This document shows positions 781 through 5,800 of a stretch of 13,591 bases of DNA, piece after piece (position 1 is the stretch's first letter; each line of letters starts with the position of its first letter). The notes under the pieces are model-generated. The model had not been told where the DNA came from. It saw only the letters and a program-made list of their open reading frames with translations, and did no database searches. Origin of the DNA: Candidatus Sericytochromatia bacterium (lineage in GTDB: Bacteria > Cyanobacteriota > Sericytochromatia > UBA7694); assembly GCA_050248915.1 (NCBI GenBank), contig JBFWRL010000156.1, forward strand, positions 1-13,591. Direction: 5' to 3'. Both the position numbers and the translations under genes were made by a program.

Positions 781-1992
781 TTAGAGACGCTGAACCCGAT
801 AGCCTTTGTCTTCCAGTTCAGCCACTATTTCTAGGGCATGTTGATGATCGCGGGTCTCAATTTCAACCTCGATTTGGGTGGTGCCCAAGGGAATATCTGA
901 ACGAAAACGGGCATGTTCAATGTGTAAGACATTGGCTTTTTGACCGGCAAGCAGTTTTAATACTTTTTTGAGTGACCCCGGTGCATCTGCAATCAGGGTT
1001 TTAAAGGTCAAAAATCGGCCGGCCCGGTTCATGCCCTTGTTGATAATTGAATCCAGCAGTTTGACGTCGATATTGCCGCCGCTGAGAACCACCAAGGTGG
1101 GCCCAATTGCGGGCACTTTGCCGCTGAGCAAAGCTGCCAAACCAGCCACACCAGCCCCTTCTGCGATTACATGTTTGTATTGAATGGCAAAATAGAGGGC
1201 ATCACTCAATTCCTCTTCGGAAACCTGCACCATTTCATCGACGTATTGACACAAAACCTCAAAATTGCGCTGAGCGGGTTTTTTGATGGCGATCCCATCG
1301 GCAATGGTGGGGGCTGAGGGGGCGAGGATCAATTTTTTGCGCGCAAACGACTCATAGAGTGAAGCCGAAGCTCGGGCCTGCACACCAATGAGTCGAACCG
1401 AGGGCTTGAGGGTCTTGATTGCAATGGCGATGCCGGATAGCAAGCCACCGCCTCCCACTGGCACTACCACCGTTTCAACCGTCGGCAATTGCTCTAAAAT
1501 CTCCAGCCCGCACGAACCTTGACCTGTAATGATATCGTCGTCATCAAAAGGGCTGATAAAGGTAACGGGGTGGGATTCAAGCCATTCCATGGCATGATCT
1601 TTGGTTTCATCAAAGCTTTTTCCAATGCAAATGACCTCTGCGCCATAACTGCGGGTGGCTTGAACCTTGGCCAGCGGTGCATCAGCCGGCATAAAAACCG
1701 TACTGGAGATGCCTGTCATGCGACTGGCCAAAGCCACACCCTGGGCATGGTTACCGGCAGAAATGGCCATCACCTGTTTGACCTGGCCCTCTGCGGCCAA
1801 TTTGCGCAATTTATAAAAGGCCCCGCGAATTTTAAAAGAGCCCGTGCGCTGTAAGTTTTCAAGTTTGAGCCAAACAGGGGCACCCAAGATCTCGCTCAGG
1901 CGCATGGACTCCAAAATGGGGGTGACCCTGGCAACGGGCCGAATTTGGGTCTCGGCCTGTTGGATGGCTGCTAAATCTACCTGACAGATCAT
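781..1992 (-). CDS. ilvA: Threonine ammonia-lyase (threonine dehydratase), PLP-dependent, short form with a single C-terminal ACT-like regulatory domain.
   Basis: The 403-aa protein carries the conserved PLP-lysine motif GSFKIRGA near its N-terminus. It also has the glycine-rich loop VVPVGGGGLLSGIA and the ...SGGNID... motif typical of fold-type II PLP enzymes. The ~80-aa C-terminal ACT-like tail (LHIEHARFRSDIPLGTTQIEVEIETRDHQHALEIVAELEDKGYRV) fits an IlvA/TdcB-type enzyme. Its ATG overlaps the TGA of the upstream MMPL gene (ATGA). Confidence 0.9.
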   Translation of the reverse strand: MICQVDLAAIQQAETQIRPVARVTPILESMRLSEILGAPVWLKLENLQRTGSFKIRGAFYKLRKLAAEGQVKQVMAISAGNHAQGVALASRMTGISSTVFMPADAPLAKVQATRSYGAEVICIGKSFDETKDHAMEWLESHPVTFISPFDDDDIITGQGSCGLEILEQLPTVETVVVPVGGGGLLSGIAIAIKTLKPSVRLIGVQARASASLYESFARKKLILAPSAPTIADGIAIKKPAQRNFEVLCQYVDEMVQVSEEELSDALYFAIQYKHVIAEGAGVAGLAALLSGKVPAIGPTLVVLSGGNIDVKLLDSIINKGMNRAGRFLTFKTLIADAPGSLKKVLKLLAGQKANVLHIEHARFRSDIPLGTTQIEVEIETRDHQHALEIVAELEDKGYRVQRL

Positions 1993-4214
1993 GTGTGTTT
2001 ATCCCTTCGCTTTTCCGCTTCAGCCTTATTATACCCCGGTCGCCACCAATTCCAGCGGCCCAGTAACATCATAAAACTGGGCACCAAAAAGAGCCTCACA
2101 ACTGTGGCATCGAGTAAAATGGCCGCAGAGATACCGATGCAAATTTCTTGGGTTTGGGGCGAGCCCGAAAAGACACCCGGCAAGAAAACCCCCAGCAAAA
2201 TCAAAACGGCCCCGGTGATAACCGAACCGCTGCGGGCGAGGCCCTCTACCACGGCTTCCCGTACCGGTGCGCCGCGGTGATAATACTCCGAAATGCGGCT
2301 CAAAATGAGCACCTCATAGTCCATGCTCAACCCAAATATGATGCAAAAAAGCACCAAAGGCACAATATTGGTCACAGCACCATTGACGGGGGTATGTAAT
2401 AGTTCTGAGAACCAGCCCTGTTGAAAGACCAGGGTTAAGAGACCAAAGGCAGAGACGATCGGCAAAAAATTCATGATCGCCGCTTTCAGCGGCAAGATCA
2501 CCGTGCGCATGATAGCAAAGAGCAAGCCATAAATGCCGCCAAAGACCAGGGCCAACATCAGTGGGGCGTGACGGTAAAGCTCGTGGGTAAAGTCCTGCAC
2601 ACGGGCCACAACCCCGCCCGTTAACAGGGTGATTTCGGGGTGTTGAGCGGCATAAGCCCGCGTAAAACGGATGATTTTGCGTGTGTCTTCGAGTTCCATT
2701 GGATCGCTGGGCAAGATGTGCATCAGGCTCAGATTTTGGGCTTGGCTTATGTTTACCAGAGCGGCAATCCGGGGCTCGTTGTTTAAGAGTCCCAGCGCGC
2801 CCAGGTTGTTGTAGAGATTGAGATAATCGTTTGTTTCAAAGTCAGGATTCCAACTGACCAGACTTTTGACTTCTGCCACATAGGGCTCTTGGCGCAAGAC
2901 CTGGTAAAAGGCCGCCATTTTTTCCAAAAGTGCAGGTTCAAACACCGTCTGACCAGGGGGCGCTTTGACCACAAGGGTCACAGGCAAAAGTTCCCCGGCC
3001 CAGCCGTCTTTTTGCAATTGCTGGTAACCCAGCATCGATTCTGATTGCCGGGGTGCAACGGCCTGCACAGGTTCCCAGAGTTTCATCCAACTCACTGGCA
3101 GCGCGCAGAGTAACAGCAGCCCCGCTGAGAGCAGAAAATACCGCATGGGATGGCCCGTCACATGCTCAGAAAAGCGTTTCCAGCTCGGGTACGAGTCAAA
3201 TCGCCCTATCCATCGAGACAAAAAGCGCGGCCGATCTAAAAAGCGTTCACCCAGAGCCAACAGCGCTGGCAGCACCAATAGGGAATTGACCAGAGACAAG
3301 CCAATCACCATCAAAATGCCTTGCATCACCGTTCGGCTGAGAGAGACATCGGGTATCAGCAGCACCGCGATACTACAAAACATGATCAGCGCTGAAAATA
3401 AAACCGTTTCACCTGCCCATTTGAGGGTGATGGCCAAAGCCTGTTCAGCGCTTTTGCCCTGTTTACACTCCTCGCGAAAGCGGCTGACCAAAAACAGCGA
3501 ATAGTCAATGGCCAAGGCCAGTCCAACCAGGCCGGTTAAGATCCGGGAAACAGGGTTGGAGCCAAAACCGGGGAGTTTGAGCAGACTGTTGAGCAAAATC
3601 AGGGTTGAAGCCCCCATCAGCAAGGGCAAAAGCGCTGACGTCAAAGCCCCAAAATTCAGGATCAAAATCACAAAAGAAATGAGCAAAGCGATAGACTCCC
3701 CCCGATGAGAGTCTTTGTTCCCCTCTTGATGGGCATCGTACTGAAAAGCGGTATTGCCCGTCAGCCAGGTTTTAAAACCCGTTTGCTCAGACCAACGCTT
3801 TAAAAACGCGCGAATGGGGCCGCTCAGGGCTTGGGCTTCGGGCATGCGCAACCGGGAGTCAAACTCCAAGAGCAAGAGTTTGAATTGGTGGGAGCGGTTG
3901 CTATCGAGGTTGCGAATCGGCAGGAGCTGCGGGAAGCGTTTTTGCAAGGCCGGAATGAGGGCCTCAACGGGGGCCTGTTGGGGCAAGACCACTGCTGCGG
4001 TGCTGCCCAAGCGCAAGCCAAATTCCTCGCGCATCAGTTTGACCACCTCATAGGCCTCTGTGTCGCGGGCCCCACTGAGATCCACTTCGGGATTTTCGTG
4101 GGGGTTGAATTTCAAATTGAGCCCCGCCAAGACCAATGCAAATAACCAGACAAACAAAATGTAGACACGTTTTTGATAGAGAAAGCGGCTGAGGTGTTCG
4201 AGCAAAATTTGCAA
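1989..4214 (-). CDS. MMPL / RND-superfamily membrane transporter (HpnN-like) with two 6-TM bundles and two large periplasmic loops.
   Basis: The 741-aa protein has two hydrophobic blocks, each preceded by a long soluble loop. Both halves carry the MMPL/RND signature around a conserved Asp: GLALAIDYSLFLVSRFREE and FGLSMDYEVLILSRISEYY. The start is TTG at 4214, 7 nt downstream of a perfect SD (AAGGAG on the minus strand at ~4223-4228). An in-frame TAG lies 10 codons upstream, so no earlier ATG is available. Confidence 0.85.
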   Translation of the reverse strand: MQILLEHLSRFLYQKRVYILFVWLFALVLAGLNLKFNPHENPEVDLSGARDTEAYEVVKLMREEFGLRLGSTAAVVLPQQAPVEALIPALQKRFPQLLPIRNLDSNRSHQFKLLLLEFDSRLRMPEAQALSGPIRAFLKRWSEQTGFKTWLTGNTAFQYDAHQEGNKDSHRGESIALLISFVILILNFGALTSALLPLLMGASTLILLNSLLKLPGFGSNPVSRILTGLVGLALAIDYSLFLVSRFREECKQGKSAEQALAITLKWAGETVLFSALIMFCSIAVLLIPDVSLSRTVMQGILMVIGLSLVNSLLVLPALLALGERFLDRPRFLSRWIGRFDSYPSWKRFSEHVTGHPMRYFLLSAGLLLLCALPVSWMKLWEPVQAVAPRQSESMLGYQQLQKDGWAGELLPVTLVVKAPPGQTVFEPALLEKMAAFYQVLRQEPYVAEVKSLVSWNPDFETNDYLNLYNNLGALGLLNNEPRIAALVNISQAQNLSLMHILPSDPMELEDTRKIIRFTRAYAAQHPEITLLTGGVVARVQDFTHELYRHAPLMLALVFGGIYGLLFAIMRTVILPLKAAIMNFLPIVSAFGLLTLVFQQGWFSELLHTPVNGAVTNIVPLVLFCIIFGLSMDYEVLILSRISEYYHRGAPVREAVVEGLARSGSVITGAVLILLGVFLPGVFSGSPQTQEICIGISAAILLDATVVRLFLVPSFMMLLGRWNWWRPGYNKAEAEKRRDKHT

Positions 4215-4300: not shown

Positions 4301-4309
4301 TGGTATGAT
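4301..4309 (+). promoter_or_regulatory. Extended -10 promoter element TGgTATGAT for the downstream MshEN-domain gene. The -35 is weak, and the predicted leader is ~145 nt.
   Basis: The sequence tggtatgat matches the TGnTATAAT extended -10 with one hexamer mismatch. It faces the 4461 CDS and lies in the 245-bp divergent intergenic region shared with the MMPL operon. Confidence 0.4.
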
Positions 4310-4460
4310 GCAGCTGACGTTTTTTTAGCATACAGCTGAATGATAGGCTTGTGTTCACACTTGCGAAATTCAAATCGCGAAGTTTAATGCAAGCAGTTCA
4401 ATGCATTTGAGCGGATGACAAAAGCTGCATCACACCTCCTTGTGCGGAAAGGGACAGTAC

Positions 4461-5000
4461 ATGGAAAAACAAAAAGAACAGGACAATTGGGAGAAATTAA
4501 CCCGGGTCGAGCGCCTGGGTGAAATGTTGGTGCGGATTCACGCTCTCAAACTCTCTCAGCTCACCGAATTGATGCAGGAGCAGGAGCGCACAGGCAAACG
4601 CCTGGGTGAGTTGGCCGTTGAAAAAGGTTTCATCACCCAAGATGAGCACGTCGATTACCTGATCGCTCAGATTCGTGGCAGTCAAGTGGTCGATGATAGT
4701 CTGAGTGAACTCGGCCGCATGACCACCGAAGAAAAATGGGAACGCCTGTCTCAACACGAACGTCTCGGTGAAATTTTGATCAAACGCCAAGTGATTCGCC
4801 TGTCTGAGTTGGTAGAGGCAATTGAAATTCAGAAACAAAATCCCGAAAAACACCTGGGTGAAGTCCTGAAAGAAAAAGGCCTGATTTCCGAATCCGATTT
4901 GGATGAAGCCCTGCGGATGCAATTTCAACAAACCGAAACCCTGCGCAACACAATTGAAGAAATCCAAAGCGCACCTGCCAAAGACAAAGAGCCCACTTAA
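4461..5000 (+). CDS. Stand-alone protein of two tandem MshEN / T2SSE_N (GspE N-terminal) domains, a putative c-di-GMP receptor.
   Basis: I chose the ATG at 4461 because it is preceded by AAGGGA with a 6-nt spacer; the track ORF opens at a TTG at 4440. The protein holds four copies of the 24-residue MshEN motif RLGxx(L/I/V)(L/I/V)xxG(L/I/V)(L/I/V)xxxxLxxxLxxQ, arranged as two pairs. Pair one is RLGEMLVRIHALKLSQLTELMQEQ, the 5-residue spacer ERTGK, then RLGELAVEKGFITQDEHVDYLIAQ. Pair two is RLGEILIKRQVIRLSELVEAIEIQ, a spacer, then HLGEVLKEKGLISESDLDEALRMQ. Both modules are preceded by a WE(K/R)L...ERLGE segment. There is no ATPase domain. Confidence 0.75.
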   Translation: MEKQKEQDNWEKLTRVERLGEMLVRIHALKLSQLTELMQEQERTGKRLGELAVEKGFITQDEHVDYLIAQIRGSQVVDDSLSELGRMTTEEKWERLSQHERLGEILIKRQVIRLSELVEAIEIQKQNPEKHLGEVLKEKGLISESDLDEALRMQFQQTETLRNTIEEIQSAPAKDKEPT

Positions 5001-5055: not shown

Positions 5056-5649
5056 TTAAGGTTGCGTGAGCCGTAAACTTAGGCTTTTGGGTTCGTTGGA
5101 TGGATTTTTGGCTCGGGGGTAGGGTTTGACATCATTTAACGTCAGGGTGTAACCCCCCATTGCGGTAGACAAGATCTGTGCCTCTTTGCCTGGCAATTTT
5201 AAGTTGATACTTTCGCTGTTTTGGCCCTTTTTGAGCATTACCGTGACTGCGACTTCTCCCGCCCAAACACAGGTCACATCACTGGGGCAGCGTGAGTCTT
5301 GGGCCGCCGAAATCCAACTCAGTGCCAGATCCGTGTTTTTGAGCTGTGCAATTGAGCCAAATGGCAGATCAAAGGCTGTGTCCAATGCAACTTCAAACAG
5401 GGCTGGTACAGGTGTTGCTGTGACCTTTCCTGTCGGCGTTGGACTGCTGACCGGGACTACACTGGGGTTAATGCTGGGGCTTTGCCTTGGCAGGGGTGTT
5501 TCACTTTGGGCTGAGGCCTGGGCTGGGGGATTGGCCGTTGTACTCAGTGAGGGATGGGGGGGCGTTGGGCTACCTTGGCTGGTCGGTTCACACGCCTGCA
5601 GAGGTAAACTCAGCAATATCAGTAGGCAAGAAGCACCAATCCTGAACAT
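5056..5649 (-). CDS. Lipoprotein with a Pro/Ser/Thr-rich linker and a ~110-aa C-terminal domain of unknown function.
   Basis: The signal peptide MFRIGASCLLILLSLPLQAC ends in the lipobox L-Q-A-C. It is followed by a low-complexity linker (SQGSPTPPHPSLSTTANPPAQASAQSETPLPRQSPSINPSVVPVSSPTPTGKVTATPVPA). A globular tail follows, with two Cys (DSRCPSDVTC) that could form a disulfide. The gene is divergent from the MVP gene. Confidence 0.7.
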   Translation of the reverse strand: MFRIGASCLLILLSLPLQACEPTSQGSPTPPHPSLSTTANPPAQASAQSETPLPRQSPSINPSVVPVSSPTPTGKVTATPVPALFEVALDTAFDLPFGSIAQLKNTDLALSWISAAQDSRCPSDVTCVWAGEVAVTVMLKKGQNSESINLKLPGKEAQILSTAMGGYTLTLNDVKPYPRAKNPSNEPKSLSLRLTQP

Positions 5650-5770: not shown

Positions 5771-5800
5771 TTGACAGCTGAAAATAAAATGTATAAAATA
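5771..5800 (+). promoter_or_regulatory. Sigma70-type promoter for the MVP gene: TTGACA (5771-5776), a 16-nt spacer, then TATAAA (5793-5798). The alternative -10 is TAAAAT with an 18-nt spacer.
   Basis: The -35 is a perfect consensus and the -10 is near-consensus, lying ~45-75 bp upstream of the ATG at 5845. The SD-like GAGGT sits 9 nt before the ATG. An upstream ATG at 5830 runs straight into a TAG, which confirms 5845 as the start. Confidence 0.6.

Follow-up and report, generated by a model that had tools for sequence, protein, structure and literature searches.

Can a protein that consists of two MshEN_N modules, with neither an ATPase nor any other output domain attached, serve as a receptor for cyclic di-GMP (c-di-GMP)? 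The question is raised by a short gene on a 13,591-nucleotide stretch of DNA from a Candidatus Sericytochromatia bacterium (contig JBFWRL010000156.1 of assembly GCA_050248915.1), which in its entirety is referred to here as the window:

4461..5000, + strand: coding sequence of a 179-aa stand-alone (MshEN_N)2 protein, ATG at 4461, stop codon included

The first-pass annotation of this DNA, made without database searches, had described a 179-aa product lacking an ATPase domain, which the open reading frame (ORF) and its translation bear out, and had put it forward as a putative c-di-GMP sensor. We find it to be a credible receptor on sequence grounds, given the scores against NCBIfam model NF053729, the conservation of the contact residues among 21 family members and the fit of the predicted modules to known structures (0.7–1.0 Å). 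The protein probably functions on its own, as a receptor or adaptor able to take up to two c-di-GMP molecules. Within the known (MshEN_N)2 class, it is a member specific to its lineage and conserved very strongly.

A conserved gene with an internal duplication

Purifying selection on the ORF at 4461..5000 is very strong, and the gene is a real one. Compared with its counterparts in the four closest loci (L007–L010, about 89% nucleotide identity), synonymous changes affect 47–56 codons and non-synonymous changes 2–3. The 179-aa protein is the most conserved product of the locus, at 98–99% identity among the closest relatives, compared to 95–96% for the neighboring major vault protein (MVP)-like and IlvA proteins, 86–90% for the MMPL transporter and 72–75% for the lipoprotein. 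A TTG codon lies in frame at 4440, upstream of the ATG at 4461; the N-termini of the homologues line up with the latter. With a mass of 20.9 kDa and a pI of about 5, the product is best explained, with reasonable likelihood, as a small acidic cytoplasmic protein.

Residues 10–86 and 93–169 are 32% identical (E 3e-13) and, therefore, the protein is a duplicated unit of about 83 residues. The unit carries a conserved lead-in, WExL(T/S)xxERLGE.

Family assignment and predicted structure

Each of the two modules is a member of the MshEN_N family, named after the 53-residue four-helix subdomain with which ATPases of the MshE/PilB type bind c-di-GMP. The whole protein matches NF053729 (MshE-related c-di-GMP-binding, 53 positions) with 95 bits and an E-value of 1.7e-27, against a cutoff of 38, and each half exceeds this cutoff by itself (49.3 bits for residues 1–87 and 65.1 bits for residues 88–179). 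Positions 1–53 of the profile fall on residues 18–70 of the first half. Local hidden Markov model matches were also found on the MshEN regions of NfrB (PRK11234), PRK15489, EpsG (TIGR03029) and PilB. Among proteins in the PDB, the best sequence match is PilF (6f8l, E 5.7e-9 for the whole chain, with GSPII-C as the best stretch), followed by PilB (6olj/5tsg, E 2.2e-5) and the Vibrio cholerae MshEN–c-di-GMP complex (5htl, E 9.3e-5, residues 17–78 against 8–68).

An AlphaFold2 model built from a 23-sequence alignment has a mean predicted local distance difference test score (pLDDT) of 73.6 and a predicted template modeling score (pTM) of 0.41. It consists of two short-long-short-long four-helix modules with pLDDT of 80–92; confidence is low for the N-terminus, the tail and the linker between the modules. 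The predicted helices span residues 19–25, 31–44, 48–54 and 60–85 in module 1, and 102–108, 114–126, 132–138 and 144–170 in module 2. The top Foldseek match in the PDB is c-di-GMP-bound 5htl, with an rmsd of 1.0 Å over 58 columns and a probability of 1.00; the c-di-GMP-bound GSPII-B domain of PilF (8pfa/8pdk/9glg) was also retrieved, at 0.7–1.3 Å.

The earlier description of the protein as two copies of the T2SSE_N/MshEN fold holds in part. Two MshEN_N four-helix subdomains are present, and the MshEN profile and the comparison with 5HTL, both suggested as checks at the time, agree with this. The companion check against Pfam T2SSE_N (PF05157) failed, with no match to the 179-aa protein at E≤0.01 or even at E≤10. 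We reject a full T2SSE_N fold: in addition to the missing PF05157 match, the model contains no β-strands and the repeat is only about 83 residues long. The C-terminal α/β subdomain (MshEN_C, or T2SSE_N1) is absent, the model being all-helical.

Two other family matches were considered and set aside. PATAN/PatA_N (PF14332, DUF4388) has a cutoff of 25 bits, which the protein passes narrowly with 26.5, but the match covers only profile positions 46–79 of 122 (residues 108–161, at 4782–4943 in the window). It recurs in most family members as a precomputed match, and part of the PATAN model may resemble the MshEN_N helical hairpin. This match and another to FumaraseC_C were taken as local helical resemblances, not as membership.

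Four motifs and the predicted ligand contacts

Each 24-residue segment of the protein was scored for agreement with the published MshEN motif at its 11 specified positions, with 2000 shuffles of the protein as reference. The four top segments (residues 18–41, 47–70, 101–124 and 131–154) match 8–9 of the 11 positions each, and the next best matches 4. The fourth-best score of a shuffled sequence never exceeded 6, and none of the shuffles gave four such matches. Applied as a strict 24-mer regular expression, the published motif matches none of the four. The four motifs form two pairs, as the first-pass annotation had recognized:

4512..4670, + strand: module 1 (residues 18–70), motif 1a RLGEMLVRIHALKLSQLTELMQEQ, spacer ERTGK, motif 1b RLGELAVEKGFITQDEHVDYLIAQ
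4761..4922, + strand: module 2 (residues 101–154), motif 2a RLGEILIKRQVIRLSELVEAIEIQ, spacer KQNPEK, motif 2b HLGEVLKEKGLISESDLDEALRMQ
4647..4649, + strand: codon 63, CAC (His), private to the window; motif 1b position 17, equivalent to Leu54 of V. cholerae MshE

The spacer of the first pair has 5 residues, again as previously read, and that of the second has 6, which is the family norm. Motif 1a deviates at positions 10 (Gly to His27), 11 (Ala) and 21 (Met), motif 1b at positions 6 (Ala), 11 (Phe) and 17 (His63), motif 2a at positions 10 (Gly to Gln110) and 21 (Ile), and motif 2b at positions 1 (Arg to His131) and 7 (Lys). The earlier observation that Gly10 is His or Gln in two of the four motifs, the first and the third, is correct; it is kept in motifs 1b and 2b (Gly56 and Gly140). 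A conserved tryptophan lies eight residues before each module (Trp10 in 19/21 members and Trp93 in 21/21). The family signature thus comprises WExL(T/S)xxERLGE before each module, a non-Gly position 10 and a 6-residue xxxPxK spacer.

In the MshE complex, the backbone amides of Gly3 contact O6/N7 of the guanines, leucine triads hold the bases and Gln24 contacts the ribose-phosphate (PMC5013675). Each triad draws its position 2 residue from one motif and those at positions 17 and 21 from its partner motif (Wang et al. 2016). The substitutions G11L and G40I in MshE abolish c-di-GMP binding, and isolated VcMshEN_N binds the ligand with a dissociation constant (Kd) of 0.35 µM without the C-terminal subdomain (PMC5013675).

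These contact residues are retained in the family. Gly3 is present in all motifs of the window protein (Gly20, Gly49, Gly103 and Gly133) and, for motifs 1a, 1b, 2a and 2b, respectively, in 21, 21, 21 and 20 of the 21 members. In the same order, position 17 is leucine in 21, 19, 21 and 20 members and position 24 is glutamine in 20, 21, 19 and 20, while position 21 is hydrophobic in every member. The triads and glutamines of site 2 are complete (Leu102, Leu117, Ile121, Leu132, Leu147, Leu151, Gln124 and Gln154), and this site looks competent, with all contact residues in place but for His at Arg1. Position 1 is known to be tolerant: motifs with Lys, Leu or Pro bind with Kd values of 6–500 nM, as in GSPII-B of PilF (Lys167 and Leu196, 6 nM) and GSPII-C (Pro335, about 500 nM) (PMC11731258). 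In the PDB sequence alignment, 7 residues (KGLPRAK) separate the two motifs of the binder GSPII-C. The triads of site 1 are complete in the family, in which this site looks competent; the window copy has His63 in place of leucine, and its site 1 may be weakened.

Codon 63 is Leu (TTG) in L007–L010 and in homologue P0001 (98–99% identical), as is the residue in 19/21 members of the family. All three codon positions are changed between TTG and CAC. L63H and R82S (4704–4706) are the sole amino-acid differences from the nearest relatives, and both are private to the window.

Comparison with MshE, PilF and other receptors

The protein shares Gly3, Leu2/17/21 and Gln24 with MshEN_N of V. cholerae MshE (5HTL), and module 1 has the same 5-residue spacer. 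It differs from MshE in having two modules in tandem and neither MshEN_C (T2SSE_N1) nor an ATPase; the first motif of either pair lacks Gly10, the spacer of module 2 is 6 residues long and is followed by a motif with His1, and L63H is an additional change. PilF of Thermus thermophilus resembles it in carrying consecutive MshEN-type modules in one polypeptide, and its non-Arg residues at position 1 (Lys167, Leu196 and Pro335) are compatible with binding. However, the modules of PilF each keep the C-terminal α/β subdomain and are fused to a hexameric ATPase, whereas the 179-aa protein is helical and stands alone.

Modules outside the secretion ATPases are found in Escherichia coli NfrB, a c-di-GMP-activated glycosyltransferase with a C-terminal MshEN, and in EpsG, which has an N-terminal MshEN_N. 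These are fused to an output domain, which the 179-aa protein does not have, and its whole-protein scores lie far below the equivalog cutoffs. A functional analogy can be drawn with the single-domain PilZ adaptors, such as MapZ and the X. citri PilZ of the PilB–PilZ–FimX complex, which are small, have no output domain and contact their partner directly; MapZ acts by such contact in response to c-di-GMP. The analogy is one of function only, since PilZ is a β-barrel instead of a four-helix bundle and has an unrelated binding motif.

Proposed mechanism and alternative functions

By homology with MshE and PilF, each module would be a four-helix bundle of two 24-residue motifs that holds one extended c-di-GMP. 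The Gly3 amides would hydrogen-bond the guanines, the Leu2/Leu17/Leu21 triads would hold them in place, and Gln24 would reach the ribose-phosphate. The two MshEN_N modules, each followed by its extended fourth helix, would be joined by a flexible helical linker. The signal may then be passed on by ligand-dependent contact with a partner protein, in the manner of the single-domain PilZ adaptors, and the best genomic candidate for such a partner in the nearer clade is the divergently encoded MMPL/RND (resistance-nodulation-division) exporter. We infer binding, stoichiometry and the adaptor mechanism from these comparisons.

Several points weigh against this assignment. None of the 21 members has Gly, Ala or Ser at position 10 of motif 1a or 2a (Asn/Gln/His in 1a and Gln/Asn/Lys/His in 2a), which places them outside even the relaxed published motif, [GAS]. 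Gly10 of the first motif of a pair has been described as required for the turn between helices 1 and 2, a turn that the AlphaFold model nonetheless predicts with His27 and Gln110 in place. Similarly, the His at position 1 of motif 2b is a family-wide deviation outside the relaxed set [RKPN]. L63H of the window matches L54H, which PMC5013675 includes among the changes in XpsE, a non-binder. In GSPII-A of PilF, small deviations together with an N-terminal helix cap can abolish binding (PMC12002112), and the conserved tryptophan segment lies just before each module. The Foldseek E-values are weak (0.3–1) because the modules are short. The literature on stand-alone (MshEN_N)2 proteins yielded no binding experiment, a motif search for GGDEF and EAL found none in the Sericytochromatia flanks (about 20 kb per genome, too little to be informative about the genomes as wholes), and no partner gene is conserved across the whole family in the loci compared.

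The first four of these points could also be read as signs of a degenerate MshEN_N protein that binds no nucleotide, its bundles serving as protein–protein interaction or scaffold modules. Such modules have precedents in XpsE-N, PilF GSPII-A and the X. citri PilB N-terminus, which binds PilZ, and complexes of the latter domain with PilZ (7lkm, 7lkn and 7lko) are among the structural matches. We consider this reading unlikely, although it has to be taken seriously. The most conserved residues are the ligand contacts (the four Gly3, the leucine triads and the four Gln24), not merely the hydrophobic core, and the positions kept here are those that decay in known non-binders (G11V, G40L, L58C and Q61V in XpsE; a motif II with only 45% of the consensus in GSPII-A). 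Both halves also clear, by a wide margin, the curated cutoff of a model made for proteins that bind c-di-GMP.

The same deviations may instead mark a functionally distinct variant. Its signature may comprise the non-Gly position 10, the 6-residue Pro-containing spacer, His1 in the fourth motif and a tryptophan segment that caps the modules. Such a protein could be a two-site, possibly cooperative c-di-GMP switch that controls the divergently encoded MMPL/RND lipid exporter through direct contact, or a receptor with shifted specificity; we regard this as rather improbable.

Less probable still is that the modules bind another cyclic dinucleotide, for example 3',3'-cyclic GMP-AMP (cGAMP), with the family-specific changes retuning specificity. 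According to PMC5013675, MshEN can also bind cGAMP, and the deviations are conserved across the family instead of being random. However, the guanine-reading Gly3 backbone and leucine triads are symmetric and are conserved in all four motifs, which fits two guanines per site; the sequence holds no pointer to adenine recognition, and there is no sign of cGAMP synthases.

Distribution of the family

The family of the 179-aa protein is confined to the Sericytochromatia (Candidatus Blackallbacteria and relatives). A homology search returned 51 proteins, nearly all of 170–207 aa. Those with a named source come from metagenome-assembled genomes (MAGs) of Candidatus Blackallbacteria or Candidatus Sericytochromatia, except for the two weakest (P0050 and P0051), of which one bears the name of a Deltaproteobacteria MAG. 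In a scan of one genome per species, the gene was found in 16 Sericytochromatia/Cyanobacteriota genomes, with one match each, and three weak matches elsewhere fell within other proteins, on their MshEN domains. When 1.84 billion cluster representatives were searched with a profile, 14,705 proteins with MshEN_N-like modules were retrieved, only about five of which are full-length representatives (about 170–196 aa) of the Sericytochromatia family. Short multi-module proteins made only of MshEN_N also occur in other lineages, for example P0146.

The architecture itself has been catalogued before. Supplementary Table 4 of Wang et al. 2016 (PMC5013675) lists (MshEN_N)2 as "MshEN_N only, no T2SSE_N1 domain" with a range in Cyanobacteria, and gives Cyanothece sp. 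ATCC 51142 cce_1044 (ACB50395) as an example. This protein belongs to the same architecture class, with two modules and nothing else, and the literature gave no function or binding data for it. It is not detectably orthologous to the 179-aa protein: the homology search did not retrieve it, and its motif sequences differ. Our survey of the literature found no characterized stand-alone MshEN protein and no relevant work on c-di-GMP in Sericytochromatia.

Genomic neighborhood

The genes and signals around the 179-aa gene in the window are as follows:

781..1992, − strand: IlvA-type threonine ammonia-lyase (TIGR01127, 466 bits)
1989..4214, − strand: MMPL-family RND transporter (Pfam MMPL, E 5.5e-52), divergent from the 179-aa gene
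5056..5649, − strand: lipoprotein-like ORF, between the 179-aa gene and the MVP gene
5771–5799, + strand: promoter-like site of the MVP gene, σ70-like, 11/12 consensus match
5845..8286, + strand: MVP-like gene, encoding an 813-aa MVP-shoulder/Band-7 protein

Synteny was compared across 16 loci, which fall into three groups. Group 1 (the window, L007–L010 and L001; ≥86% identity) has the order MMPL(−), gene(+), lipoprotein(−) and MVP(+), with extra genes between them in L001. Group 2 (L002–4, L011, L012 and L014–L016; about 68–71% identity) has MMPL(−), gene(+) and LexA(+) and no MVP; L013 has lost MMPL. In Group 3 (L005/L018, L017, L019, L021 and L022; 52–60% identity), the order is GCS2(+), gene(+) and a variable gene. 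L020 has MoaE upstream and a Dna2-like helicase downstream. In Group 3, the gene lies 30–110 bp downstream of the co-oriented gene for a GCS2-family carboxylate-amine ligase (at about 8.4–10.0 kb in locus coordinates). The GCS2 gene of this group and lexA of Group 2 are conserved neighbors that take the place of each other.

The MMPL gene is adjacent and divergent in L001, L002–4, L007–L012 and L014–L016, in which the MMPL proteins share 40–90% identity and the outer flanks differ. The pairing holds in 10 of the 11 nearer-clade loci, down to an MMPL identity of 40–56%, and MMPL is absent from L013 and from the 52–60% clade. It is the only neighbor conserved beyond the closest clade, which hints at a functional link or at control from a common region, although the pairing is not universal. 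Of the two links proposed on first reading, that to the divergent operon fits the data better, as regards MMPL, than that to MVP; being absent from the more distant clade, it is suggestive at most.

The IlvA gene overlaps the stop codon of the MMPL gene by 4 nt, an odd operon pairing that is seen only in the closest clade (L007–L010). In L002, L011, L012 and L016, MMPL is flanked instead by genes for 3-hydroxy-3-methylglutaryl coenzyme A (HMG-CoA) reductase, a GHMP kinase and a CsoS1D-like bacterial microcompartment (BMC) protein.

The neighborhood bears directly on whether the protein could be the detached N-terminus of a type II secretion system (T2SS) or type IV pilus (T4P) ATPase, that is, a split gene whose product acts in trans on a nearby PilB or GspE. 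The nearest solved relatives are indeed the N-termini of PilF, PilB and MshE. However, no T2SSE-type Walker A motif (G[PSA]TGSGK[ST]) was found in any frame at a distance of up to 10 kb from the gene, either in the window or in L001–L022, whereas the same pattern detects the ATPases of the outgroup loci L024 and L025; split-gene adjacency is therefore excluded. The Pfam-annotated neighbors never include T2SSE, and the protein lacks MshEN_C, the subdomain through which MshEN_N is joined to the ATPase. The first-pass annotation had stated that a constant position beside a T2SS/T4P ATPase gene would speak against an independent sensor, and no such gene is adjacent in any of these loci. A split gene is thus very improbable, while action in trans on a distant PilB may occur.

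Lastly, a role as dedicated regulator or adaptor of the vault-like (MVP) locus, for which one could cite the position of MVP 0.85 kb downstream of the gene in the window and in L007–L010 and 2.7 kb downstream in L001, is largely refuted and the least probable of all, since the two genes share no operon (they are separated by a convergent lipoprotein gene, and a strong promoter-like site precedes MVP), none of the 11 more distant loci has MVP within 10 kb, and the roughly 6900 MVP homologues occur in many phyla while the 179-aa family occurs only in Sericytochromatia. Co-occurrence, examined from both sides, does not support the functional link suggested earlier: adjacency to MVP is limited to the closest clade, and the association is a local synteny of that clade. 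In MAG GCA_037968875.1, both genes are present on different contigs (MVP on JBBKWI010000197.1, L028; the 179-aa family gene on JBBKWI010000035.1, L013). None of the ORFs in five MVP loci matches the family profile, and the MVP locus of JACYMC01 has no MshEN-like ORF. The lipoprotein gene is, as annotated, the only gene between the two, and the distance to the MVP promoter, given before as 650 bp, is about 770 bp when measured from the stop codon (5000) to the site at 5771–5799.

The MVP homologues, at 62–71% identity, come from Melainabacteria, Planctomycetota, Riflebacteria, Myxococcales, Desulfobacterales and Bacteroidia; the conservation of this 813-aa MVP-shoulder protein is unusually high for such phylogenetic distances. 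Further downstream, a DUF1963 gene (PF09234; 8349–9083, + strand) is present in the window, L008 and L010 and missing from the otherwise collinear L007, and it represents presence/absence variation within the clade. A predicted 489-aa lipoprotein without a Pfam family (9657–11126, + strand) appears by eye to contain three internal repeats of about 150 residues, with the pattern GEC...YEV...Q(S/T)R(K/Q/T)LS...P(E/A)(G/D)(S/A)PQT.EC(R)(T/S).

Expression signals and leader

Three elements were located upstream of the 179-aa gene:

4301..4309, + strand: extended −10-like element TGgTATGAT, read from the sequence; invariant in the window, L007, L008, L010 and L001
4326..4423, + strand: leader insertion of about 98 nt, private to the window; a gap in L007, L008, L010 and L001
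4446..4454, + strand: Shine-Dalgarno-like GGAAAGGGA, 7 nt before the ATG

The extended −10 element is a predicted one, based on its reading and its conservation in the five loci, and it agrees with the first-pass annotation. A two-hexamer consensus scan, which needs a −35 hexamer, gave no + strand promoter upstream of the gene and does not list TGgTATGAT. The 30 nt before the ATG (4431–4460) are identical in the window, L007 and L008, with a few differences in L010 and L001; the invariant part runs from CTCCTT (4435) onward.

A leader of about 145 nt had been described, and this is its length in the window. It is not conserved, as the 98 nt at 4326–4423 are absent from relatives whose proteins are 98–99% identical. 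The leader of these relatives measures about 55 nt, and Group 2 has only about 63 bp between the divergent genes. The insertion has short hairpins and may represent a mobile or repeat element of small size. The idea of a repeated mobile element was rejected, no second copy having been found in the window or in the 25 fetched loci. A riboswitch or other RNA in the leader was likewise rejected: Rfam gave no family at gathering thresholds in the whole window, the leader's fold surpasses that of shuffles by a modest margin only (z = −2.2), and most of the leader is the window-private insertion.

Implications

Before ComFB, PilZ and MshEN are described as having been the only two c-di-GMP receptor domains with a broad distribution across bacterial phyla (PMC12448109). 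The 179-aa protein does not establish a new category, as its architecture has been on record since 2016 and it is recognized by a current NCBI domain model, and the tempting connection between c-di-GMP and a bacterial vault-like protein is removed as unsupported. What the locus offers is a concrete and easily purified candidate c-di-GMP receptor for the Sericytochromatia, and a possible model for MshEN signaling without a fused output domain. Should it prove to be the functionally distinct variant, in either form, it would be the first characterized stand-alone MshEN adaptor and would reveal that the non-photosynthetic sister lineage of the cyanobacteria has a c-di-GMP output.

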